Positions 3,823-44,967 of a stretch of 44,967 nucleotides of DNA are shown here, one piece after another. A program made the position numbers and the translations under genes. Position 1 is the stretch's first letter, and the number at the start of each line of letters is the position of its first letter. The stretch comes from an uncultured delta proteobacterium (GTDB lineage: Bacteria > Myxococcota_A > Polyangia > Polyangiales > Polyangiaceae). The stretch lies in contig CAVSWE010000003.1 of NCBI GenBank assembly GCA_963731595.1, positions 300,948 through 345,914 of the forward strand, in the 5' to 3' direction. The notes beneath the pieces were generated by a model, which had not been told where the DNA came from, did no database searches, and saw only the letters and a program-made list of their open reading frames with translations.

Positions 3823-4536
3823 GTGCGGATTAGCGTCCTGCGCTACAACCCGCAGGAGCGCGGCAGTGTTCCCCGCATGCAGGCCTACGAACTCGAAGAG
3901 GCCGAGGGAATGACGCTGTTCATCGCGCTCAACGAAATCCGCGAAAAGCAGGACGCATCCCTGCAATTTGACTTCGTCTGCCGCGCCGGGATATGCGGCA
4001 GCTGCGGGATGCTGATCAATGGGCGCCCAGGGCTCGCCTGCCGTACGCTGACAAAGAACCTGGACCCGGAGATCACGCTGGCGCCCCTGCCGGTCTTCGA
4101 ATTGATCGCCGACCTTTCGGTGAACACCGGCAAGTGGATGCGGGCGATGAGCGAACGGCTGCAGACCTGGGTGCACATGCGCCAGAAAGAGGTGGACACT
4201 TCCCGGCTCGAGGAGCGCATGGAGCCGGAGCTGGCGCAGAAAATTTACGAACTTGATCGCTGCATTGAATGCGGGTGCTGCGTCGCCGGTTGTGGCACCG
4301 CGCGCATGCGCGAAGACTTTGTCGGCGCGGTCGGCCTGAACAAGATCGCCCGTTTCCGGCTCGACCCGCGCGACACGCGCACCGACGCAGACTTCTACGA
4401 ACTGGTCGGTGACGACAGCGGTGTATTCGGTTGCATGTCCTTGCTCGCTTGCCACGATGTCTGCCCGAAGGAGTTGCCGCTCGCAACGCAAATCGCCTTC
4501 ATGCGTCGCAAGATGGTGAGCATCGGTTGGAAATAG
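3823..4536 (+). CDS. frdB: Fumarate reductase/succinate dehydrogenase iron-sulfur subunit
   Basis: An intact 237-aa ORF with a GTG start. Cysteine motifs are CRAGICGSCGMLINGRPGLAC (2Fe-2S), CIECGCCVAGC and CMSLLACHDVCP (4Fe-4S/3Fe-4S). Confidence 0.93.
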   Translation: MRISVLRYNPQERGSVPRMQAYELEEAEGMTLFIALNEIREKQDASLQFDFVCRAGICGSCGMLINGRPGLACRTLTKNLDPEITLAPLPVFELIADLSVNTGKWMRAMSERLQTWVHMRQKEVDTSRLEERMEPELAQKIYELDRCIECGCCVAGCGTARMREDFVGAVGLNKIARFRLDPRDTRTDADFYELVGDDSGVFGCMSLLACHDVCPKELPLATQIAFMRRKMVSIGWK

Positions 4537-14904: not shown

Positions 14905-16553
14905 TTATGGACGCGCGGCGTCGATGCGCTCGCGGACCGCCCGCCACGCATCCGGCTGGCGCGCCTGCTCGAGCGGCGCTTCGCTATCGTAGGCGACGAC
15001 GAACGCCTGCTCCTCCGGCGCGAGGGGCTCGCACGTACGTAGCTGATAATCGAGCACCGCCAAATCGGCGTCCGAAGCGTCGGATCCTGCCGCGGCACGC
15101 TGCGCTATGCGCTCCCGAAGGGTCGAGTGCGCGCCATGAAATCCACGATCACGAAGGCGATGCCGAGCTCGATCGCGAGATTGCGGAAGAGGTCTCGCTG
15201 CCAGCGGTTGAGGAAAGTCGCGTCGATAATTGCAACGAAGCCGGCACCGACCACCTCTCGCGCCAGCGCGCCAAGCTCCCGGTATGTCGCCTCCGTCGCG
15301 CCGGCCGCGTACAGGCCACGATCGATGCCCGTCGCACCGCGCTCGTGGGCGTCGAGCCCGTGCATGCGCTTGCGCTCGACGTCGCTGCGGATTCGCACCG
15401 CGCCGATCGTCTCCAGCAGCACTCTGCGACAGGGTGGTCTTGCCGCAGCCGGCGAGCCCGTGGGTGACGAGGAGCGCGGGCCGTGTCGGCTGCGCGTAGC
15501 TTCGCGCCAGAGTCACGTGCGCGCGGTATTCGGCAAGCAATGCGCGTCGCGCTGCGCCGGCTTCGAGCTGTGCCGCGCGCAGCCGCGCGATCTTGGCGCG
15601 CACCATCGCGCGGTACACGAGATAGAAGCGCAGCACGGTCAGGCCAGCGTAGTCCCCCGTCCGCTCCAGGTACGCGTTGAGGAAGCGACGGGCCAGATCG
15701 ACTCGTCCGCGATAGTGGAGATCCATGACCGTGAACGCGACCTCGTTCATCACATCAATCCAGCGCATCGCCTCGTTGAATTCGATGCAATCGAAAATGA
15801 CAAGCTCGTCGTCGATGCGCGCGATGTTGTTGAGATGCAGGTCGCCGTGGCACTCGCGGATGAAGCCTTCCTTGCGCCGCCGCAGGAATGCGCCTTGGCA
15901 CGCGGCATGCTCGCGGTCGGTCCAGACGCGGAGCTCTTCGAGCTCGTCGCGTTCCGCCGCCGTCGCCACGTGCGGTCGGAACTGCGCGAAATTTTGCCGC
16001 GCGACGCGCAGAATCTCCTCCGGCGAGCCGAATGTGCCGTCGCGAGGAACGACACCGCTCGAGTCGTGAAAGGCGGCGACCTTCGCCGCCAGCGCATCAA
16101 TGTCGGCGGGTGAGAGCTCGCCGCGCGCCAGGATGCGGCTGGCCAGCGCGTCCTGCGGGAACTCGCGCATCTTCACCGCGTACTCGAGTGCCGGACCGTC
16201 GCCGCCGAGGACCGGAGCGTCAATGCTGCCCGTTATCGGCACGACGTCGAGGTAGAGCGCGGGTGCAAGCCGGCGATTGAGGCGCAACTCCTCTGTGCAG
16301 AAGAATCGCCGCGCCGCGAGTGTCGTGAAATCGAGAAAGCCGAAGTCGACCGCTTTCTTGATCTTGTACGCGTAGTGCCCGGCCAGGAAAACGCAGGAGA
16401 TGTGCGTTTCCAGCCGCTCGACGCGCCGCAGTCCGGCCCGAAGACCGCGGGACGGGAGAGCGCCGCCAGCAGTCGAACCTGATCCGTCTCGGTTGCGACG
16501 AGGGTCGTGGCCCGCTCGGGCGGCATGCGGTGGAAGATGCGTGGTGGCATCTG
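14905..16553 (-). pseudogene. Bifunctional aminoglycoside-phosphotransferase-like / P-loop (AAA_33-type) kinase, with at least 3 frame disruptions
   Basis: Pieces in different frames: ...LLAALSRPAVFGPD; VERLETHISCVFLAGHYAYKIKKAVDFGFLDFTTLAARRFFCTEELRLNRRLAPALYLDVVPITG; HGDLHLNNI (kinase catalytic loop); THGLAGCGKTTLSQ (P-loop); LLETIGAVRIRSDVERKRMHGL...FVAIIDATFLNRWQRDLF. Confidence 0.7.
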
Positions 16554-18706: not shown

Positions 18707-19230
18707 TCAAAGTCCAGAGCGTCGGCAACCGAGGAGATTGGCACGCATCCAGACTGCGTGTTCACGTTCAGGCGGCATTTGCGGTCGCTCATCAACGACG
18801 TTGTAGGCGACTTCATAGTGCGCCACGCTGCGGTCATGGCTAAGCATCATGGCTTCGACAGGGGGCGGGACGACAGCGACTCCAACGTCGGCGCCAGCAA
18901 ACGCTTTGATAGCCCCCAAAGACTCCCACAGCGTTAGAGCGCGGATGCTTCCGTCGCCTTCACCGCCTGGATCCCCGACCGGATGCCCTCGGACAGCATC
19001 GCGGCAAACGGCGTCTCTCCAAACGGGGGCCCTCAGCGTCCAGGAAACGCGTGCCACAGATCCTCGCCAAAGTAGGCGAGAGAACTGTATTGGCTGGGCT
19101 GCAACGCGTCCGGCGGCAGCGAATTGGTCGCGGAGAGGCGGTACCATGCCAGCGTGGTTGCCAAACAGACTGCCACGGCGACCGCCATGGCGATTCGAGT
19201 GGCCGATTTGCGCGGGATCCGATTCGTCAT
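18707..19230 (-). pseudogene. ABM (antibiotic-biosynthesis-monooxygenase-like) domain protein, disrupted. Only the C-terminal half is confidently readable.
   Basis: GSIRALTLWESLGAIKAFAGADVGVAVVPPPVEAMMLSHDRSVAHYEV matches the conserved C-terminal half of small ABM-fold proteins. The upstream part lies in other frames and crosses a TGA at 19033-19035, so the N-terminus is unresolved. Confidence 0.4.
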
Positions 19231-19948
19231 CGCCGAATCCTCCTATCACCGTTGCGACACTGGTTGCATGTCGAAAACATACCGAGACGATCCGAGAATA
19301 TTATGGTCAGGACTACCGCGAAGCGTCTTGATCAAGGTCAACTAGGCGCGTCTTCGCCTAGCGGCGTTGACTGGCCTCGGCGTCCGGCTCGCTGTTGACT
19401 TTGGCACACCCCTTGCGGGTCGCTGACTTGGTAGGTGGCGGTTTACTACCGTGTGAGTTACCCCCGCTGACGCTGCTCGTTACATAGCGACGCCGGTGAC
19501 GCTCGCCGACCGCAATCGCCGGAATGCAAGGAGAGTGCAATCGGCATCACCGAAATCGACCACACGATCTACCTGTGCACGACCCGGTCGTGAAGATTGC
19601 GACGTTTTACCGCGATCGTTCAAGACGTCACAGACGTCGGCATCCGTTGGAGCGCCCTCGGCGGTCACCGTTGGTGCTTGTTACGTCGTCACAGCAACGG
19701 TGTGCCGGACTCCGCGAGTTGCCGGAACATCAACGCGATGTCGTCGTTTTTGCGCCAGCGACGGGATTGCGGCGCTGAAAGCCTATAAACTGCCCTGGTT
19801 CCAGTACGCGACGCGGAAGTCGTTATCGGTCGCAAACAGCGGGCGCACGCGGGACGAAATGCGGCCGGGAGGTGAAAATCCCGGCCGCGACACACGATGT
19901 CCCACGCTATCCGTTATGACGCTCGGCGAGGGGAGATTTGCATCGATC

Positions 19949-25463: not shown

Positions 25464-26699
25464 TTAATGCCGATTCTGGTAGTTCAAGGATTGATGAAAC
25501 GAATCGCGCTGCCAGTCTGGCATTTCGCCGTAAGGATACTCGTTCGAAATCCGGCGACCCGACGCGATGCCGTTGTATAGACCTGGAAGCGATGCATAGT
25601 CGCCTGGGCCGAACGTTCGGCATTCGCCGCGGAAATTCGCATCGCTGCAGAAGATCCAGTAGCCGCGATCGACCCGCAGCGACGACGCTCGTTCGGTGAA
25701 TTTGTCATACAGGTCATCCTGGCCCTCGCTACTGAGACGGAATTCACGGCCGGTGAGGTTGGGTCCCGAAAACAGCGTGGCGCTGGCGCGACCGCGTATT
25801 CCGTCGCGTGGCATTTCGCCGCGCTGATCGTAGGACGGGCGAACCGAACTGATACGACCGCTGAGACCGCCGAGTTCCGCATATCGACCCGGAACGAAAA
25901 TTCGACAACCGCCGCGGAAATCGGCGTCCACGCAAAGCTCCCAAGCGCCGCCCTCGACGATCGCTGATTGATATCGCTCAACCGCGTGCGATGAAGCAAA
26001 ATTGGGATCCGGTTGGTCTATCATAAATTTGCTTCCGCCAAAATTCTCGGACTCAAAGAATATGATGCCTCCTTTTGCTCGCGGCGTAATAGCCGGCGGT
26101 GGCAGTGTCGCCATCGGTACCGAAAGCGGACGCGCAGAGCTGATGCGACGCGACCAAGCGTCGAGGATCGGGTAACGGCCCGGGCCTAGGGTCGTGCAAT
26201 CGCCACCGAAGTTAGAGGCGGCGCAGACTTCCCATGCTCCTCCTTCCACCACTGCCGATTGGGGCCGGCCATTAAAGCCGCTCGGACCGAAATTTGACAG
26301 CGTCCGGTCGGTCGAAATTTGATGGCCGCCGAAGTTTTCGTTTTCATAGAATGTGATGCTACCGGTAGGCTGTAACCCTATTACGGGTGTTGTACCAACC
26401 GGCCGTGCGGAGCTGACCCGCCCCGACAGTCCACCGAGGCTTGGATAACGACCGGGCGCGAGGACCGTGCAGCCACCACCGAAATTCTGGTCGAGACACA
26501 GCTCCCATGAGTTGCCGTCGACGATAGCCGATTGCGCACCGTTGTTGAAACCGACGACGCTGAAATTCGGCAGCGATTGGTCAACGGTAATTTGGTGCCC
26601 GGCGAAGTTCTCAGTTTCAAAGAACGTAACGTTGCCCATCGCCGTACCGGAGGCAAATGCCGCGATGCCAAAGATGAAATGCTGCAATAGTCGGTTCAT
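25464..26699 (-). CDS. Secreted protein with four tandem beta/gamma-crystallin (Greek-key) domains
   Basis: A signal peptide (MNRLLQHFIFGIAAFASGTAMG) is followed by four repeats of about 95-100 aa: VTFFETENFAGHQI.., ITFYENENFGGHQI.., IIFFESENFGGSKF.., ATLFSGPNLTGREF... Each contains SA.V.GG.WE.C....F.G.C....PGRY..L and ISS.RP. The ORF is intact. Confidence 0.8.
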   Translation of the reverse strand: MNRLLQHFIFGIAAFASGTAMGNVTFFETENFAGHQITVDQSLPNFSVVGFNNGAQSAIVDGNSWELCLDQNFGGGCTVLAPGRYPSLGGLSGRVSSARPVGTTPVIGLQPTGSITFYENENFGGHQISTDRTLSNFGPSGFNGRPQSAVVEGGAWEVCAASNFGGDCTTLGPGRYPILDAWSRRISSARPLSVPMATLPPPAITPRAKGGIIFFESENFGGSKFMIDQPDPNFASSHAVERYQSAIVEGGAWELCVDADFRGGCRIFVPGRYAELGGLSGRISSVRPSYDQRGEMPRDGIRGRASATLFSGPNLTGREFRLSSEGQDDLYDKFTERASSLRVDRGYWIFCSDANFRGECRTFGPGDYASLPGLYNGIASGRRISNEYPYGEMPDWQRDSFHQSLNYQNRH

Positions 26700-27668
26700 T
26701 GCTGTTGACCCCTCGTTGGTGTCCACGAACTTTAGCGTTCCGATCGAGCATAGCTGCTTGATAGTTCTAAAGTCTGGCGGAAGCACTGGAGGACGTCTGT
26801 GCGGGATCGCACACAGAGAAGTTCTTCTCCACCTACTAGCACTCGCTATAAAGGGAAAGCCGCTCAAGATCAGTGGCGACGCGGATAGCTACAACCATCA
26901 AGATGGGAACGAGGATTAACGCCAAGCAGGCACCTTGTATCGGTTCATTGATGGGTCCCAAAAATCGCGACTTGTCGGCAACCTTGCTGGCGCGCTAAAG
27001 GTCGTGCCGCGCTTTATTCAGGCGCGACAGATTGGTCAGTTCTGTAAAGAGGGCCCGACTATGGCGGCCACGTAGCTGTGGGTCTAGGCATCAAGATCGA
27101 TGACACTATCGGCCAAACGGCATAATGTCCTGTCTGGACCCATGATTTCATTAGTTATGGTCGACAGCGCCATCGAACGACCACTGTCGGCGACTTCGCG
27201 GTATGGCCGCTTTTAGCCGGGCGTTGACCGGCAAGAACGTATCTCGGTTCTTGACCGCCTCCCGTCGCGTTGCGGACTGGGTCCTCGGTGGCTCAGACCG
27301 CTTGCCTGGGCCCCGATAGGTATCGGGCTGTGTCACAATCGACCAACAAGGCCACCAGCACGACGACTACCACGGTTCCTAAGCCGCTCGGATACCACCC
27401 ATAGCTGTGATGCCATGGACCAATCCGACATTGCGCCGACAGACCGCGCGCTCCGCCATACGGCGGGAAACGTACCCAATGCTTGGAAGATTTCCCATCG
27501 GCTGTCAGTGCAGCAGCGGACACTTGCGCTGGATCGGCGAGCGCAGTGGATATGCTGGCCCATCATGACTTCGAACTCGATATTGGCGGCGCACAGCTTC
27601 GCTCAGTGCGAGGGAAGTGCGAGCAAGTACCGCGCGCAGCGGATTACGGTAAGAAAGCGGTCGGTGAG

Positions 27669-38196: not shown

Positions 38197-39520
38197 CTAG
38201 CAGCCTGATGCAAAACTGGACATTTCTCGATTATCGGCTACCTTGTGAATAAGGTCCGACTCCGAGAAAGAAACACAATGCGCGGTCATCAGGAACCTCA
38301 AGAGTCAGATGTTTAGTTACTTCTCGCCGGAGTCGCGGGTGCCGGTGGATCATCCGCTGCGCAGCATCAAGGCGCTACGCCGATCCGGGTGCTCAAGGAG
38401 CTGTACGCGGGACTTCGATGCACTGTACGCGAGACACGGGCCGGCCCTCGATTCCGCCGGAGCGACTGCTCGAAGGGCCAGTCTGCTGATCGCGCTGTAT
38501 TCGGTGCGCTCGGACCGGCATGTTCTGCCAGATGCTCGACTACAACATCCTGTTTCGCTGGTTCCTGGACATGAGCCTGGAGGATGCGGGGCTTGGACCA
38601 GTCGAACTTCTCGCGCCTGCGCGAGCGGCTGGTCGATAGCGAGGATCTGGCGCAGCGCTTCTTCGATGCGATCGTGAAGGTCGCGCGCGCGAGGGAGCTG
38701 CTGTCCTCGGAGCACCTGACGGTGGACGGCACGCTGATCGAGGCGTGGGCGGGAGCCAAGAGCTTCAAGCCCAAGGACGGACCGCCGCCGGCGCTCGGAC
38801 GGTCGAGGCGGAGTCAATTTCCGCGGCGAGCACCGCGCACCAACGACACCCATGCTTCGACGACCGATCCGGAAGCCAAGTCCGCCCGCAAAGGCAAAGG
38901 CAAGGAAGCCAAGCTGTGCTTTGGCGGCCATGCGCTCATGGAGAACCGCAACGGACTGTGCGTCGATATCCGGATGAGTTCGGCGCTCGAGACCGAGACC
39001 GCGCGGCCGAGGCAGCTGCTGAAGCGCCAGCGACGCAAGCGGCTGAAGCCGACCAGCGCTGGGCGCCGACAAGGGCTACCACAGCAAGGCATTTCGTGCG
39101 CATTTCCTGCGCCGCCGAGGCATCCGCCCGCACATGGCGCAGATCGAAGGGCGCAACACGCCAGGGCTGGATGCACGCACCACGCGTCATGCGAGTTACA
39201 GCGATGAGCCAGACGAAAGCGCAAGCGCGTCGAAGAGATCTTCGGCTGGATGAAAGCGTACGGCGGACTGCGCCGCACGCTGCTTCCGTGGCCTGCGCCC
39301 GCGTGCAGCTGCACGCCTACCTCGTCGGTGCGGCCTACAACCTGCTGCGGCTCACTCGATTGCGGCCGCTTACAGGGTAGTTGCGTCCAGATATAGGCCA
39401 TAGCCTTCAAACTCAGCAAAGCAGCGCGGTTACAAAGTCAGAACGGCTCATCTGAACCCCAAAAAGATCGAAGCGATGTTATCTCTCACCGTATTCGGCC
39501 GTTCTGCATCGGCCTGCTAG
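38197..39520 (+). mobile_element. IS5-family insertion sequence with imperfect terminal inverted repeats, CTAG at both ends, and a decayed transposase gene
   Basis: The left end is CTAG-CAGCCTGATGCAAAAC (38197-38216). The right end reverse complement is CTAG-CAGGCCGATGCAGAAC (39501-39520), giving 13 of 16 matches after CTAG. The transposase reading frames lie between them. Confidence 0.7.
38278..39380 (+). pseudogene. IS5-family (DDE, InsH-type N-terminus) transposase, with many frame disruptions
   Basis: Pieces across the three frames: MRGHQEPQ, MFSYFSPESRVPVDHPLRSIKA, LIALYSVRSDR, LDYNILFRWFLDMSLEDAGLDQSNFSRLRERLVDSEDLAQRFFDAIVKVARARELLSSEHLTVDGTLIEAWAGAKSFKPKDGPPP, HASTTDPEAK.ARKGKGKEAKLCFGGHALMENRNGLCVDI, GADKGYHSKAF, IRPHMAQIEGRNTPGLD, EEIFGWMKAYGGLRR, VQLHAYLVGAAYNLLRLTRL. 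Confidence 0.8.
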
Positions 39521-40820: not shown

Positions 40821-41130
40821 TTGGCGTCGCCGATCGTGAATAGCGCTAAGTTGAACCGGTCCGCCAGCTTGAGGCTCGGGCTGGTCGTGTTGGCGTTGGG
40901 TGCCGGCCTACTCGCGTCGGGCCCGGCGGCGAGTGAAGACGTGGACATGAACGACGGGCAGTGGCACTTCGGCATCACGCCCTACGGATGGCTGCCGAGC
41001 CTTCATGGCAACCTGAACCTCATTCTGCCGTCGGGGTCCACTTCGGCGGCAGTGGAAATCAACCCGAGCAGCTACCTGTCCAACCTCCAGTTCGGATTGA
41101 TGGTTGCCGGCGAGGCGCGCAAGGGTGAAG
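40821..41130 (+). pseudogene. Outer-membrane beta-barrel protein, N-terminal fragment (about 100 codons)
   Basis: A signal peptide (LGLVVLALGAGLLASGPAASE) is followed by WHFGITPYGWLPSLHGNLNL...SYLSNLQFGLMVAGEARKG. This is typical of the first strands of a family of about 250-300 aa OM proteins. Similarity stops at about 41125, where an integrase scrap begins on the other strand. Confidence 0.5.
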
Positions 41131-41222
41131 ATCGTGAGGTCCGCCAAATGTTCCGGGAGCGCCGCGATTAGCTGCTGGGCGTGGTCTTTGGTCAGTACGC
41201 TTTCGCTTGGTCCGGATAGCAT
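41118..41222 (-). pseudogene. Tyrosine recombinase/phage integrase internal fragment (about 35 codons)
   Basis: SVLTKDHAQQLIAALPEHLADLTIFTLA resembles the LT.eE...Ll.alp.hl..l..faL.TG block preceding the catalytic domain of tyrosine integrases. There is no N-terminus and no catalytic residues. Confidence 0.4.
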
Positions 41223-41343
41223 TTAGCGCCGCATGCGGAGCGTATGGCCGAACATGTGGGCACGTTTTGGGCACAGCCCGTGGACGACAATCAAAAGCCG
41301 CGCAAGAAGGCGGCCACATGACATTGTTTCCACAGCAAAAATC

Positions 41344-41388
41344 TGGTGGCCAAGGGCGGAATTGAACCACCGACACACGGATTTTCAG
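41344..41388 (-). tRNA. tRNA-Phe(GAA) 3' fragment from the anticodon loop to CCA. It is not a complete gene and is probably an att-site repeat.
   Basis: The reverse strand reads CTGAAAA-TCCGT-GTGTC-GGTGG-TTCAATT-CCGCC-CTTGGCC-A-CCA. That gives the anticodon loop with GAA, the 3' anticodon stem strand, the variable loop, a complete T arm, the 3' acceptor strand, the discriminator and CCA. The sequence 5' of it cannot form the D arm or the acceptor 5' strand. Confidence 0.75.
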
Positions 41389-41740
41389 TCTGATAACAGG
41401 TGAAGTAAAGTTGCTCGGTTTGTCAATTAATCAATGGCTTGCGAAGCTTGCCACTTTTCCGTTTTCGCCAATTCCAGCCTCACTCAGGCTGATTTTGGGC
41501 ACTGCCAATCTCAGTTCGTCACAAACGCGTCTCGCAGCAAAATGAACCTGTCGCTACTCGGATCTCATCTAGCAGACACGGTCAGGTCGGCTTTCGTTCG
41601 CGACAGGTCTAGTTTCGTTAAGAGGCGCTGCAATCAAGTCAGTCCAAGTCGCTTCGCAATGCCGGACGCCAGCACATGATAGCCAACCCAGTTAACGGTT
41701 TACAAAACGTTTCGTACGAACGTAGAAGTTTGTTACCGCT

Positions 41741-42046
41741 TCAGACGCGCGGCTGTCGACCTCGACTGGTATGCCAAAACGCAAGCACGTCAACAAACTC
41801 TCCCGCCACCCGATAGTAGATGTAGTACCGCACCCGGGCCAGCGTCACACGACGCACGCCCTTGGCGCGGCTGCGACGAGCCGGTGCACCTATGCCAGGC
41901 TGCATGCATAGCACATCCAGCATCTCGGCAACGTCGTGGTGTATGGCATTGGGTGCCGATGGTCGGTTTCGGGCCCACCACTCCGCCGCCTCTTCGATTT
42001 GGCTCAGGGCCCGCTGAGAGACCCTGATCTTGCGCAGTAAAGTCAA
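41741..42046 (-). CDS. ParE/RelE-family type II toxin
   Basis: A 101-aa protein with a TTG start. ...VRRVTLARVRYYIYYRVAGEFVDVLAFWHTSRG is the typical ParE/RelE C-terminal pattern. It overlaps the upstream antitoxin stop by 4 nt (TTGA). Confidence 0.75.
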   Translation of the reverse strand: MTLLRKIRVSQRALSQIEEAAEWWARNRPSAPNAIHHDVAEMLDVLCMQPGIGAPARRSRAKGVRRVTLARVRYYIYYRVAGEFVDVLAFWHTSRGRQPRV

Positions 42047-42264
42047 CCGAATCGGCGCAGCCGCTCGAGCAGTTGCTCACCTGAGACGAACTCCCCTCGC
42101 TCGATTTGAGCGATGGAGTCGAGCAGCTCGTCCTCCTCTCCAGGAGTTAGCTCGAATGCTTCTTCGTTGTCGCGGAGTACCACGGTAACAGTCGAGCCTT
42201 CGGCCAAGGACTCCCCCTCGACCACGACTTTTCCGTCGACAACGATGCCGGTAGTGACTTTCAT
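42043..42264 (-). CDS. Type II antitoxin partner of the ParE/RelE toxin
   Basis: A 73-aa acidic protein, MKVTTGIVVDGKVVVEGESLAEGSTVTVVLRD...EEDELLDSIAQIERGEFVSGEQLLERLRRFG. Its position and translational coupling are typical of an antitoxin. Confidence 0.65.
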   Translation of the reverse strand: MKVTTGIVVDGKVVVEGESLAEGSTVTVVLRDNEEAFELTPGEEDELLDSIAQIERGEFVSGEQLLERLRRFG

Positions 42265-42405
42265 GCTCGGTATTCTACCTTTGACCAGAGTCCGTGTCTC
42301 GTCTCCTCGTCTCCGCTCGACTTGCCGCCGGTGGCTGCAATCTCTTGCGGTTTCAACCGGTCAATGCAACGCACTATAGCCTGAGCAATCAGAGGAGTGT
42401 TGCAG

Positions 42406-42700
42406 ATGAGACCTCGGATCTATTACACGGAGAGTCAGAGGGCGCTGATGTGGGAGCGCTGGCAGAAGGGTGATTCTCTACACCAAATCGCGCGGTTGTT
42501 TGATCGGAACCACCCATCTATAGCGCGGATTTTAGGCGAGACGGGTGGGATCCGTCCGGCGCCACGAAAGCGCTCGCGATTGGCGTTGACCTTGGCCGAA
42601 CGCGAAGAGATCTCGCGCGCGGTGGTTGCCGGTCATTGCATGCGTTCGATAGCAGTGCACCTCGGCCGAGCGCCATCGACGATCAGTCGGGAGCCTCTCT
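42406..42700 (+). mobile_element. IS30-family transposase, N-terminal HTH fragment only
   Basis: MRPRIYYTESQRALMWERWQKGDSLHQIARLFDRNHPSIARIL...LTLAEREEISRAVVAGHCMRSIAVHLGRAPSTISRE matches the double-HTH N-terminus of IS30 transposases. Similarity ends after STISRE, and the DDE domain is absent. Confidence 0.7.
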
Positions 42701-42820
42701 TGGCGAAACGTCTCGAGCCTTCGTGGCGGCACCTGCGTGAGCGCGTCGGTACCGGCACTGCCTCGGACGCAACGTTCCGAGCGCCACACAAATGCTCAAC
42801 CGATTGCGCCGACACGCAGC

Positions 42821-42979
42821 CTATGGCCGCTTGCCAACGACCTTTCCGTTCTCCCAAACGTAGATGCGCGTGCCGTGCACGCGCGCAGTCTTCCTTGCTT
42901 GGCGCGCCGCTCTTTGAATTGCCCGGGCCACAGCCGCGAAGAAACGTTCGTTCTCCTTGGATTTCGCGTGTTTTATCAT
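42821..42979 (-). CDS. Small (52-aa) basic protein translationally coupled to the zeta-like kinase (below the ORF-track cutoff)
   Basis: The manual translation is MIKHAKSKENERFFAAVARAIQRAARQARKTARVHGTRIYVWENGKVVGKRP. Its ATG overlaps the upstream TGA (ATGA at 42976-42979). Confidence 0.45.
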   Translation of the reverse strand: MIKHAKSKENERFFAAVARAIQRAARQARKTARVHGTRIYVWENGKVVGKRP

Positions 42980-43527
42980 GGACCTCGCTCGATCAGCTTT
43001 GGTTTGTCTCCCGCATTATCGTAGACGGTCCACACGTCTGCCATGGGCCGATAAATGGCCCAAAAATTATCCCAGCTTCGCTGAAATCGACGCCGTACGT
43101 CGACCTCGGGGACATCATGTCCCCCTTGCTTGACGCGCTCGGCAATCCTTCGCAGGGCGAGCCGTGGGGACGGTAGCTTCAAGTAAACGATCTCCACTCT
43201 ATAGCCGGCCGTCTTCCAGCGTTTTAACCGCGACAGGTATGCAACGCCACTGAGTGTACTCTCAAACGCAAAATCTACCCGTTCGGCTGCGAGCCGGTCC
43301 AGTTCCCTAAGAAAGATTCGTCCCGCGGCCAGCGCTGCCATTTCGGGGCGAAGTGGAGCGAGACCCGCGGCGATCAAATCTGCGTTCACAAAGTGGATCA
43401 CCTTGGCGTCAATTGGAAGAAATTGACGAGCGAAGGTCGTCTTCCCTGCCCCGTTCGGCCCGGCGATGACGATGCAGCGGTGTGCTTTTCGACGCCGCCG
43501 GGTGGCAGCACTCGCCCTAGTCGTCAT
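42976..43527 (-). CDS. Zeta-toxin-like / AAA_33-type P-loop kinase
   Basis: IVIAGPNGAGKTTFARQFLP (Walker A), FVNADLIAAGL, FAFESTLSG and VEIVYLKLPSPRLALRRIAERVKQGGHDVPEVDVRRRF are typical of the zeta toxin family. The ORF is intact. Confidence 0.75.
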   Translation of the reverse strand: MTTRASAATRRRRKAHRCIVIAGPNGAGKTTFARQFLPIDAKVIHFVNADLIAAGLAPLRPEMAALAAGRIFLRELDRLAAERVDFAFESTLSGVAYLSRLKRWKTAGYRVEIVYLKLPSPRLALRRIAERVKQGGHDVPEVDVRRRFQRSWDNFWAIYRPMADVWTVYDNAGDKPKLIERGP

Positions 43528-43864
43528 CGTGGCTTCTTGTTGTTTTGGAGATCACTATTATAGCTAGCCCTTTTAGTGCAAGCGCGCACGGCGCTGGCTC
43601 GCTTGCCCAGGAAGCTGGGACGCCATCGCGCATTGCGGTGCAACCGAGGGCCTGCTGCATAGCCCACAGCGCCCATCGAGGAGTGAAGGGCGGCTATGAG
43701 CAACAGAGCCGCCAGCGGGCGCCTCGGTTCCAATGGGCGTGAACGACCCCAATCCGGTCATCGAGCCTTATGAAAACCAATGGGATGGACCCCTCCTCAC
43801 CTAGCGGCATCGATGTGCCAGACCGGAAGTGTCAGCCACCAGTCAACGGGAGAAGGAGTCCACC

Positions 43865-44400
43865 ATGAAGCTTATTCGCGTTGGGGTCGATTTGGCAAAG
43901 AACGTCTTCCAGGTCCACGGTGTAGATCGGAACGAGAAAGCGATATGGTGCCGCAAGCTAGGGCGGGAGAGCTGGGTGAAGATTCTGCTGGAGACCGTTG
44001 AGTCTGGCTGTGAGATTGGCATGGAGTCGTGCGGTGGCGCGCACCATTGGGCTCGCCAACTGCAGGCGCACGGGTTGAAGGTGAGGATGATTGCGCCGCA
44101 GTTCGTCAAACCGTATGTGACGAGTAACAAGAATGACGCCAACGATGCCGAGGCGATCTGTGAGGCAATGAGCCGGCCCAAGATGCGCTTTGTGGCGGTG
44201 AAGACGGTGGAGCAACAAGACATCCAGGCGGTACACCGAATTCGCGCCGAGCTGACCAAGCAACGCACAGCCAAAGGGAACCAGATCCGGGGCCTGGTCG
44301 CCGAGTACGGGTTGGTGGCACCTAAGGAGCTGGAGCATTTGCGCAGGGCGTTACCCTGTTGGTTGGAAGACGCAGAGAACGGCTTGAGCGGGCGGTTCCG
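43865..44400 (+). mobile_element. IS110-family transposase, N-terminal (DEDD) domain fragment
   Basis: Reads MKLIRVGVDLAKNVFQVHGVDRNEKAIWCRKL...GMESCGGAHHWARQLQAHGLKVRMIAPQFVKPYVTSNKNDANDAEAICEA...IQAVHRIRAELTKQRTA..NQIRGLVAEYG. Similarity decays after about residue 180, and the C-terminal Transposase_20 domain is absent. Confidence 0.75.
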
Positions 44401-44702
44401 GCGACTACAGGTCGATCAACCGCGTCGCAAACAGGAGCACATCCACCACGATTGCTAAGCAAACCGAACGATGGCAAACAGGTCGAACCGGCGCCGGCAG
44501 ATCCCGAGAACGTCCATGTGCGAGAAGCACGAAAAACCAATGGGGAGCTGGCGCGCGAATAGCCCATCATGGCCCGGCATCGTCAAATCGATGCGGCAGT
44601 TAGAGGCCGGATATACGTGAGCAGTCGTACCTCACCGCCAAAGATCGGAATGCTTGCAAACGAGGAGGGGTCCATATACGGACGTTCGCATAACGTAATC
44701 CT

Positions 44703-44967
44703 TTACTGCCCCCCAGCAACGTTGACTGGCACCGAGCTGCTCGTGGTCCAGCTGTTGCCGAGTTGACCGGAGCTGTTATCGCCCCAGCAATACACCGCAC
44801 CGCCGAGGCTTGGGCCGCCGGGCGTTGGGCCGGTATACGGAAGACCTATCATGCCACACGTGTGGCGGCCCCCCGCACTGATCCACGCAAAACTAAGTCC
44901 ACCCGAAACAAGCACCGGTGTCGTGCTGTTCGTCATCGTGCCGTTACCGAGTTGTCCAAAGCTGTTG
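44703..44967 (-). CDS. RCC1/BLIP-II-type repeat protein. Only the C-terminal part is present because the gene continues beyond the right edge.
   Basis: The reverse strand reads ...[37 protein letters not shown]...[27 protein letters not shown]. These are repeated YCWG.N..GQLG blades typical of RCC1-like beta-propellers. Confidence 0.65.

Follow-up and report, generated by a model that had tools for sequence, protein, structure and literature searches.

A stretch of 44,967 nt from contig CAVSWE010000003.1 (assembly GCA_963731595.1, positions 300,948 to 345,914 of the forward strand), hereafter the window, holds near its right end a fragment of a phenylalanine tRNA gene, tRNA-Phe(GAA). This fragment very probably marks an internal junction of a tandem array that genomic islands have formed at tRNA-Phe in a Casimicrobiaceae-like betaproteobacterium. 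On one side it adjoins the conserved end of an island termed E1 and on the other the remains of the integrase gene of a second island, E2. An identical copy of the fragment bounds E1 outside the window, and a co-occurring strain lacks exactly E1. The features of the site are as follows.

41344-41390, minus strand: displaced 3′ fragment of tRNA-Phe(GAA), positions 30-76, 47 nt, recognized by its identity to the intact tRNA-Phe of relatives
41391-41545, minus strand: predicted P arm “X1”, the conserved distal end of island E1, recognized by its conservation beside other fragments
41391-44967, no strand assigned: window part of island E1, delimited by the repeat pair in locus L114 and its absence in locus L116
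41220-41321, plus strand: C-terminal stub of the integrase of island E2, residues 318-350 plus stop, lying in the predicted P′ arm “Y1”, recognized by tblastn and DNA conservation
41296-41315, minus strand: terminator-like hairpin and T-run, 29 nt past the CCA end and within the integrase stub
41118-41200, minus strand: inverted internal scrap of the integrase, residues 160-186, recognized by tblastn and the orientation of blastn alignments

Stretches of related metagenome-assembled genomes (MAGs) and metagenome contigs were set against the window and are numbered here as loci L001 to L122, and the scan for exact matches to the 45-mer of the fragment covered one genome per GTDB species. L114 and L116 are 20-kb views of two contigs from ENA sample ERZ25039546, namely contig_121291 (54 kb; L001/L114) and contig_25596 (505,833 bp; L116). 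Both are near-identical to the window, and L001/L114 differs from it only by insertion sequence (IS) polymorphisms. The intact reference integrase was taken from L050 (MAG MFD05705.bin.2.149; L050:414-1466).

The initial annotation, made from the sequence alone, had described a 45-nt piece of tRNA-Phe(GAA) running from the anticodon loop to CCA and lacking a 5′ half, and this proved correct to within 2 nt (47 nt). Positions 41344-41388 on the minus strand span 45 nt from the first base of the anticodon loop to CCA and read, from 41388 to 41344, CTGAAAATCCGTGTGTCGGTGGTTCAATTCCGCCCTTGGCCACCA, that is, the anticodon loop with GAA, the 3′ strand of the anticodon stem, the variable loop, the T-arm, the 3′ strand of the acceptor stem and CCA. 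The window and the intact tRNA-Phe are identical at 47 of 47 positions (blastn-short E 2e-22), with an identity block extending from the anticodon stem-loop to the 3′ end, and nothing upstream of the fragment aligns with the 5′ half of tRNA-Phe. As expected for half a tRNA, neither ARAGORN nor Rfam at gathering thresholds called a tRNA anywhere in the window, and a permissive Rfam scan matched the T-arm only, to the tmRNA model (E 4.7). In blastn against plasmids the tRNA part alone was matched, always to tRNA genes, one of which was checked by ARAGORN and is a tRNA-Phe(GAA). The fragment at 41344-41390 is real and far beyond chance.

The 45-mer was found exactly in 105 stretches of GTDB representatives, all of them Betaproteobacteria-type MAGs and many labelled Casimicrobiaceae or Burkholderiales. 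As many as 82 copies form the 3′ part of an intact tRNA-Phe(GAA) with the 5′ part GGCCAAGTAGCTCAGTTGGTAGAGCAGCGGA, and 26 copies in other genomes are displaced fragments. The initial annotation had made its reading depend on an intact tRNA-Phe with an identical 3′ half; such a gene exists throughout the clade, an answer that concerns the relatives. In 24 of the 26 displaced copies the tRNA identity ends 0-2 nt upstream of C32, and for this reason the breakpoints are regarded as non-random. Such endpoints agree with a site-specific exchange at the anticodon loop, and not with random truncation. We also observed, in eight loci (L023, L026, L034, L054, L056, L065, L102 and L106), a short second copy of the T-arm-to-CCA part, 35-45 nt after the intact tRNA-Phe and beyond a hairpin; these copies resemble att scars of a second class, such as integrases with their crossover in the T-loop or at the 3′ end would leave.

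The X1 arm precedes the 47-nt core in the orientation of the tRNA and ends in ...CACCTGTTATCAGA at the core. It is 90-97% identical beside fragments in L021, L031, L060, L068, L097, L103 and L117-L122, the last six being metagenome contigs of the Joint Genome Institute. This conservation starts abruptly at GAGACGCGTTTGTGAC, ~155 nt from the core, beyond which unrelated DNA is found at each locus. Because X1 is never seen beside an intact tRNA, it is assigned as the distal (P) arm of an island family. The site in the window has the form P arm - core - P′ arm, as expected of a chromosomal seam of two islands integrated successively. L021 has one fragment with a Y1 arm after it and, at a distance of 6.4 kb, another with an X1 arm before it, an arrangement which shows that such seams occur within an array. 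A search with every arm variant from the 105 loci returned no other att-like site in the window.

The Y1 arm occupies 41343-41218, and its DNA is 86-96% identical to the sequence that follows the 45-mer in L016, L019, L021, L027 and L050; it stands after the intact tRNA in L016, L027 and L050, and after displaced fragments in L019 and L021. What this arm encodes is apparent from L050, where the stop codon of a convergent open reading frame (ORF) of 350 aa lies 22 nt past the CCA of the intact tRNA-Phe. The L050 protein matches PF00589 (Phage_integrase) at 99 bits, and scores far below every curated NCBIfam model (P4-type PRK09692, 24.8 bits against a cutoff of 434). Convergent integrases with 42-51% identity to it occupy the same position in L015, L025, L057, L084 and L113, and partial homologues do so in L092 and L104. 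By tblastn, residues 315-349 of the L050 integrase align at 41211-41315 of the plus strand of the window (24/35 identities, E 5e-11), with an in-frame stop just before the stub at 41217-41219 and the natural stop at 41319-41321. This stub sits in its native place, convergent with the tRNA and with its stop 22 nt from the CCA as in L050. The terminator-like hairpin within it keeps its stem despite changes on both arms in L003, L016, L027 and L050 (GCCGC/GCGGC versus CCGTC/GACGG; judged by eye and unscored).

The second remnant aligns with residues 160-186 at 41198-41118 of the minus strand (23/27 identities, E 6e-9). Its blastn alignment to L016 and L050 runs opposite to that of the adjacent flank and stub, and the scrap is therefore inverted relative to the native gene. 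Neither Pfam nor NCBIfam matched the 35-codon scrap or its ORF; the best tblastn hits of the scrap against plasmids have E values of 1-7, and the label “site-specific integrase” on two of the three is suggestive only. The initial annotation had recognized a tyrosine integrase fragment of about 35 codons on the strand of the tRNA fragment. The family and the strand hold, but only 27 codons are demonstrably integrase, and the shared strand is a product of the inversion, the native orientation of the family being convergent with the tRNA. It had also overlooked the in-place C-terminal stub at 41220-41321. The catalytic residues of the L050 integrase (R190, H276, R279, W302 and Y311) lie outside both remnants, so that the R, H-x-x-R, H/W and Y of a tyrosine recombinase are missing from the window copies; judged by their alignments, these remnants are homologous to the PF00589 family and can no longer be active.

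Side by side, the integrase stubs that border the 45-mer in L016, L021, L003, L027, L019 and the window break at residues 153, 236, 303, 303, 308 and 318, respectively, and all six keep at least the last 33 codons, which hold the terminator-like hairpin. This retention may reflect selection on the P′ arm or on the terminator, or mere ascertainment. A second tyrosine-integrase wreck was noticed further left on the plus strand, at 18731-18856 and 19650-19892, with its pieces out of order; they correspond to residues 120-195 of the L104 integrase (E 1.5e-7) and to about residues 232-266 of the L084 integrase. The wreck coincides with a step in G+C content from 60-68% to 56-59%, and may represent a further array member that has lost its core repeat.

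Island E1 runs ~5.4 kb beyond the right end of the window to a second identical repeat, which answers the search for further copies that the initial annotation had proposed. In L114 the two 47-mers lie at 4407-4453 and 16474-16520, identical and on the same strand, the second with an X1-like P arm upstream and an integrase stub, Y2, downstream. This stub belongs to a second type of integrase, its motif GCTGTATACCAAAATGTAGC encoding ATFWYT as in the integrases of L084 and L015. The block common to both copies extends to 53 nt (TGGTGG...CAGTCTGATAA, window 41344-41396). E1 measures 12,020 bp in L114, a length that counts an IS66 element of ~3.06 kb that the window lacks. It carries ParDE, an IS30 remnant, a zeta-like kinase, a truncated IS110, an RCC1-repeat protein, HxlR and a substrate-binding protein. 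No integrase was found inside E1, either in the gene table, which has IS transposases only, or by tblastn with eight integrases of the family; near the second copy tblastn gave only weak integrase stubs. E1 thus has two att sites and no recombinase or transfer genes, the make-up of a cis-mobilizable element.

The L116 contig contains a single 47-mer and lacks the unit of ~12 kb between the repeats. Its left flank is that of the first copy, with the integrase stub, the inverted scrap and the truncated gene next to it, and its right flank is the P arm of the second copy, followed by DEAD-box helicase and RIO1 kinase genes. A three-way alignment places the switch from first-copy to second-copy type inside the 53-nt identity block, and for this reason E1 is regarded as a discrete, repeat-bounded unit that is present or absent between strains. 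It follows from the strain precisely lacking E1 that the 53-nt repeats have recombined. The comparison with relatives free of the insertion, also suggested at the outset, was thereby made, L116 lacking exactly E1. The E1-E2 seam is also present in relatives that are 90-96% identical (L003, L006 and L121), and on the E2 side L116 shares 99.3-99.7% identity with the window and with L114; given both, loss of E1 in L116 would be the parsimonious direction. The E1-less allele is equally compatible with an integrase of a neighbouring island acting in trans and with RecA acting across the 53 bp. The initial annotation had suggested a tRNA-targeted att site within tandem islands that suffered later deletions, and the arm, the stub, the second repeat and the E1-less allele all bear this out. 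Its term “attachment-site scar” fits less well: an att site it is, but a seam of P-O-P′ form rather than a simple distal repeat, and “scar” understates a repeat pair that recombined recently enough to be polymorphic within one sample. Separately, another array member, decapitated, is seen at 19545-19858 of L114, to the right of the RIO1 kinase gene. Here the outer 35 nt of an X1 P arm stand without a core, and the 280 nt beside them are 99% identical to the cargo-side flank that P arms have in L031 and L068.

In the mechanism that we propose, the attP of the family would consist of the ~155-bp P arm, a 47-bp copy of tRNA-Phe 30-76 and the P′ arm, the last being the 3′ end of a convergent tyrosine integrase gene of ~350 aa. 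The integrase would exchange strands in or next to the anticodon loop; the 47 bp brought by the island would rebuild the tRNA, and the resident 3′ part would be pushed to the far end of the island. Repeated integration would stack the islands, and each seam would then read, in tRNA orientation, P arm of the 5′-side island, 47-mer, and P′ arm of the 3′-side island. In the window, E1 is the island to the right and E2 the one to the left. The E2 integrase would have been wrecked by an inversion and a deletion that left its last 33 codons, the 27-codon inverted scrap and a fusion to a truncated gene for an exported protein. In the simplest history, the inversion would have had one end at the boundary of residues 159 and 160 and its other end close to residue 317, and a later deletion would have removed the inverted residues 187-316 and sequence beyond them, fusing the scrap to the neighbouring gene. 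E1 starts with the second-type integrase stub at the next repeat, outside the window. Neither E1 nor E2 can move alone.

Three other explanations were weighed. The fragment could be what is left of a resident tRNA-Phe gene that lost its 5′ half to an IS insertion or a random deletion, and would then be no displaced att repeat; IS elements are indeed dense on both sides, and neither the 45-kb window nor a further ~30 kb that was examined contains an intact tRNA-Phe. However, the break falls at the anticodon loop, as it does in nearly all of the independent fragments (24/26), and the 5′ half is replaced by an arm conserved beside many fragments and not by an IS end. At a distance of ~12 kb there is another, identical fragment with the same orientation, and the allele of the co-occurring strain differs by exactly the interval between the two. 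We consider truncation of a resident gene largely refuted and give it next to no chance. It is also very unlikely, to a lesser degree, that the fragment is the distal repeat (attR) of a single island on the right, with ordinary chromosome on the left and the integrase pieces as unrelated debris. The hairpin just after the fragment does resemble the native downstream flank of a tRNA gene, and no second repeat is seen on the left side. Yet this supposed native flank codes for the 3′ end of an integrase (24/35 identities), with its stop 22 nt from the CCA as in L050; in L019 and L021 this flank also stands after displaced fragments, and lower G+C and accessory genes extend leftward to ~19 kb.

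The remaining alternative is that the seam is an artefact of assembly, or that the attP of a free circular element was collapsed into a chromosomal contig at the repeat. The order P-O-P′ is formally that of an attP, several short contigs break at the P arm (L002 begins at window position 41522), and the data are wholly metagenomic. Against this stands the seam with both flanks, which is shared by the window, L001/L114 and, from different samples, L003, L006 and L121, and which is embedded in contigs of 54 kb (L114) and 505 kb (L116). This alternative is, in our estimation, extremely unlikely.

Several observations weigh against the tandem-array reading itself. Every sequence used comes from a metagenome assembly, in which such repeats can misassemble; even so, at least five independent assemblies show the seam of P arm, core and P′ arm. 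The divergence between L114 and L116 amounts to 3.1% on the right flank as against 0.7% on the left, and because of this unevenness the two alleles did not arise from one clean recent event. The intact tRNA-Phe of the genome itself was not found in the window, the 20-kb L114 or L116, and neither a full-length integrase nor an intact tRNA-Phe lies within the 20 kb of L114 or within 9.8 kb to the right of the single repeat of L116. No repeat that would delimit E2 at its far end was found in the window (allowing up to 3 mismatches over 25 nt). Finally, TTTTGGGCAC, tried as an arm-type site and rejected, occurs exactly twice, once per arm; with one mismatch allowed there are 4 matches, a number reached by 29 of 100 shuffles. 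The motif is without statistical support, and in the P′ arm it may be just conserved (G/A)TFW coding.

How far the tandem array may extend at this locus can be seen in a relative, contig CAVQDI010000006.1 of MAG MFD03346.bin.1.142. An intact tRNA-Phe at ~1,010,232 is followed by nine displaced fragments over 122 kb, at ~1,032,636, 1,041,039, 1,047,420, 1,058,182, 1,075,572, 1,089,208, 1,107,399, 1,116,647 and 1,132,567, all on the same (plus) strand as the intact gene; loci L016, L031, L021, L060, L103, L011, L068, L086 and L048 come from this part of the contig. The intact tRNA upstream and in the same orientation, as Islander demands, is thus seen in this relative. The units measure 6-22 kb, mix at least three types of P arm with at least three types of P′ arm, and have mostly truncated integrases beside the copies; the array is unusually long. 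Islander, applied to 2168 genomes, yielded only 4 arrays of at least three members in which every member had an integrase of its own (PMC4383910). The Casimicrobiaceae-type clade is at the high end of array size, mostly by way of integrase-less units. A bolder view, which we hold to be possible but rather unlikely, is that the tRNA-Phe locus acts as a cassette-like platform of nine or more units and over 100 kb. Integrase-less units with full seams would be excised, reshuffled and exchanged in trans by a few intact integrases of two or more types, and the loss of E1 would have been mediated by an integrase and not by RecA.

tRNA-Phe is a familiar target of integrative elements. Mesorhizobium ICEMlSymR7A with its integrase IntS, and the pheV and pheU islands of Escherichia coli, have the integrase gene by the regenerated tRNA and a direct repeat at the far end; their integrases are P4-type proteins of ~400 aa, and the repeat is ~17-23 bp at the extreme 3′ end of the gene. 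Set against these, the site described here has a 47-bp repeat that starts at the anticodon loop and an integrase of 350 aa.

The anticodon-centred attP corresponds to the “A” sublocation (Williams, 2002, as cited in Hudson et al., 2015; PMC4383910), and the identity block begins at the anticodon loop in 2083 of 3919 Islander islands (PMC4383910). The window site resembles these “A” islands in its tyrosine integrase, in the tRNA 3′ part supplied by the island, in the displaced fragment at the island end and in the anticodon-loop start. Among the features by which Islander recognizes islands, the fragment identical to the 3′ part of the cognate tRNA is found here, as is the precise presence or absence between repeats, L116 being without E1; beside the regenerated end there are only integrase stubs (residues 318-350 and 160-186 for E2, and Y2 for E1). 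Unlike the fragments of Islander islands, that of the window forms a seam inside an array and borders on integrase stubs, and the Islander filters, which expect an integrase per island, would not call the units of the window. Tandem arrays that form by reintegration into regenerated cores have been described (PMC7192596; PMC4383910). As far as they are discussed in PMC3146451, the model of ICESt1 and cis-mobilizable elements (CIME; Pavlovic et al., 2004) and the ssrA islands of Dehalococcoides are similar to the present array in having islands head to tail at one RNA gene with 3′-end direct repeats between them, and many units that lack a recombinase and yet have both att sites. The target here is the anticodon loop of tRNA-Phe instead of the tmRNA T-loop or fda, and the enzyme is a tyrosine recombinase instead of the serine recombinase of Dehalococcoides. 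For the window array the observation is a precise presence/absence allele, and mobilization in trans is one of its possible causes.

Two gene features adjoin the site.

40821-41126, plus strand: 5′ part (~100 codons) of a signal-peptide gene, truncated and fused to the inverted scrap, recognized by its homologue P0002
41741-42264, minus strand: ParE toxin (41741-42046; PF05016, 39.9 bits) and a small gene in the antitoxin position (42043-42264)

The ORF at 40821-41171 has only two relatives in the database, one of which is the same ORF in the sister contig. The other, P0002 (197 aa, 71% identity), goes on beyond “...AGEARKG” (~41126), the point from which the window ORF departs from it, and this extension supports the truncation. 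The initial annotation had called it a truncated outer-membrane protein gene; the truncation stands, but “outer-membrane” finds no family support, as neither the window ORF nor P0002 matched Pfam or NCBIfam. The ParE pair is the first E1 cargo beside the P arm, and is retained together with arm and core in L003, L006, L007 and L121. The accessory genes named on either side were confirmed: Pfam matched ParE, an IS30-type helix-turn-helix remnant, the zeta-like kinase and IS110 on the right, and NCBIfam matched the IS5/IS1182 remnant on the left. The “dead sulfatase” is indeed truncated, its ORF covering only positions 210-300 of the 301-position Pfam profile. A G+C scan located the proposed lower-GC cargo, the G+C content falling from 60-68% to 56-59% at ~19 kb.

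IS traffic differs between the near-identical contigs: a 1.3-kb IS5-family element at window 38205-39516 is not in L001 or L116, and the ~3.06-kb IS66 of L001/L114 is not in the window, where its junction (42453-42461) shows a 9-nt overlap. The left end of the window IS110 (43777-43911) is 91% identical to positions 363-496 of L074, less than ~500 nt downstream of an intact tRNA-Phe; since L074 belongs to another Casimicrobiaceae MAG, the same IS recurs at the tRNA-Phe locus. Within the low-G+C cargo, 25464-26867 (minus strand) encodes a 467-aa protein with four beta/gamma-crystallin domains (PF00030, 198 bits), near two Crp-type regulators, a Sel1-repeat protein and a patatin-like lipase.

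The mechanism is textbook and well known, and the finding opens no new question. It accounts for ~25 kb of the window as a patchwork of toxin-antitoxin genes, IS elements and pseudogenes. Island finders that demand one integrase per unit will overlook most members of such arrays, and the strains with and without E1 provide a concrete unit for testing excision. For the tRNA-Phe-specific tyrosine integrases of this uncultured soil and freshwater clade, the P arm, the core and the P′ arm are now defined.

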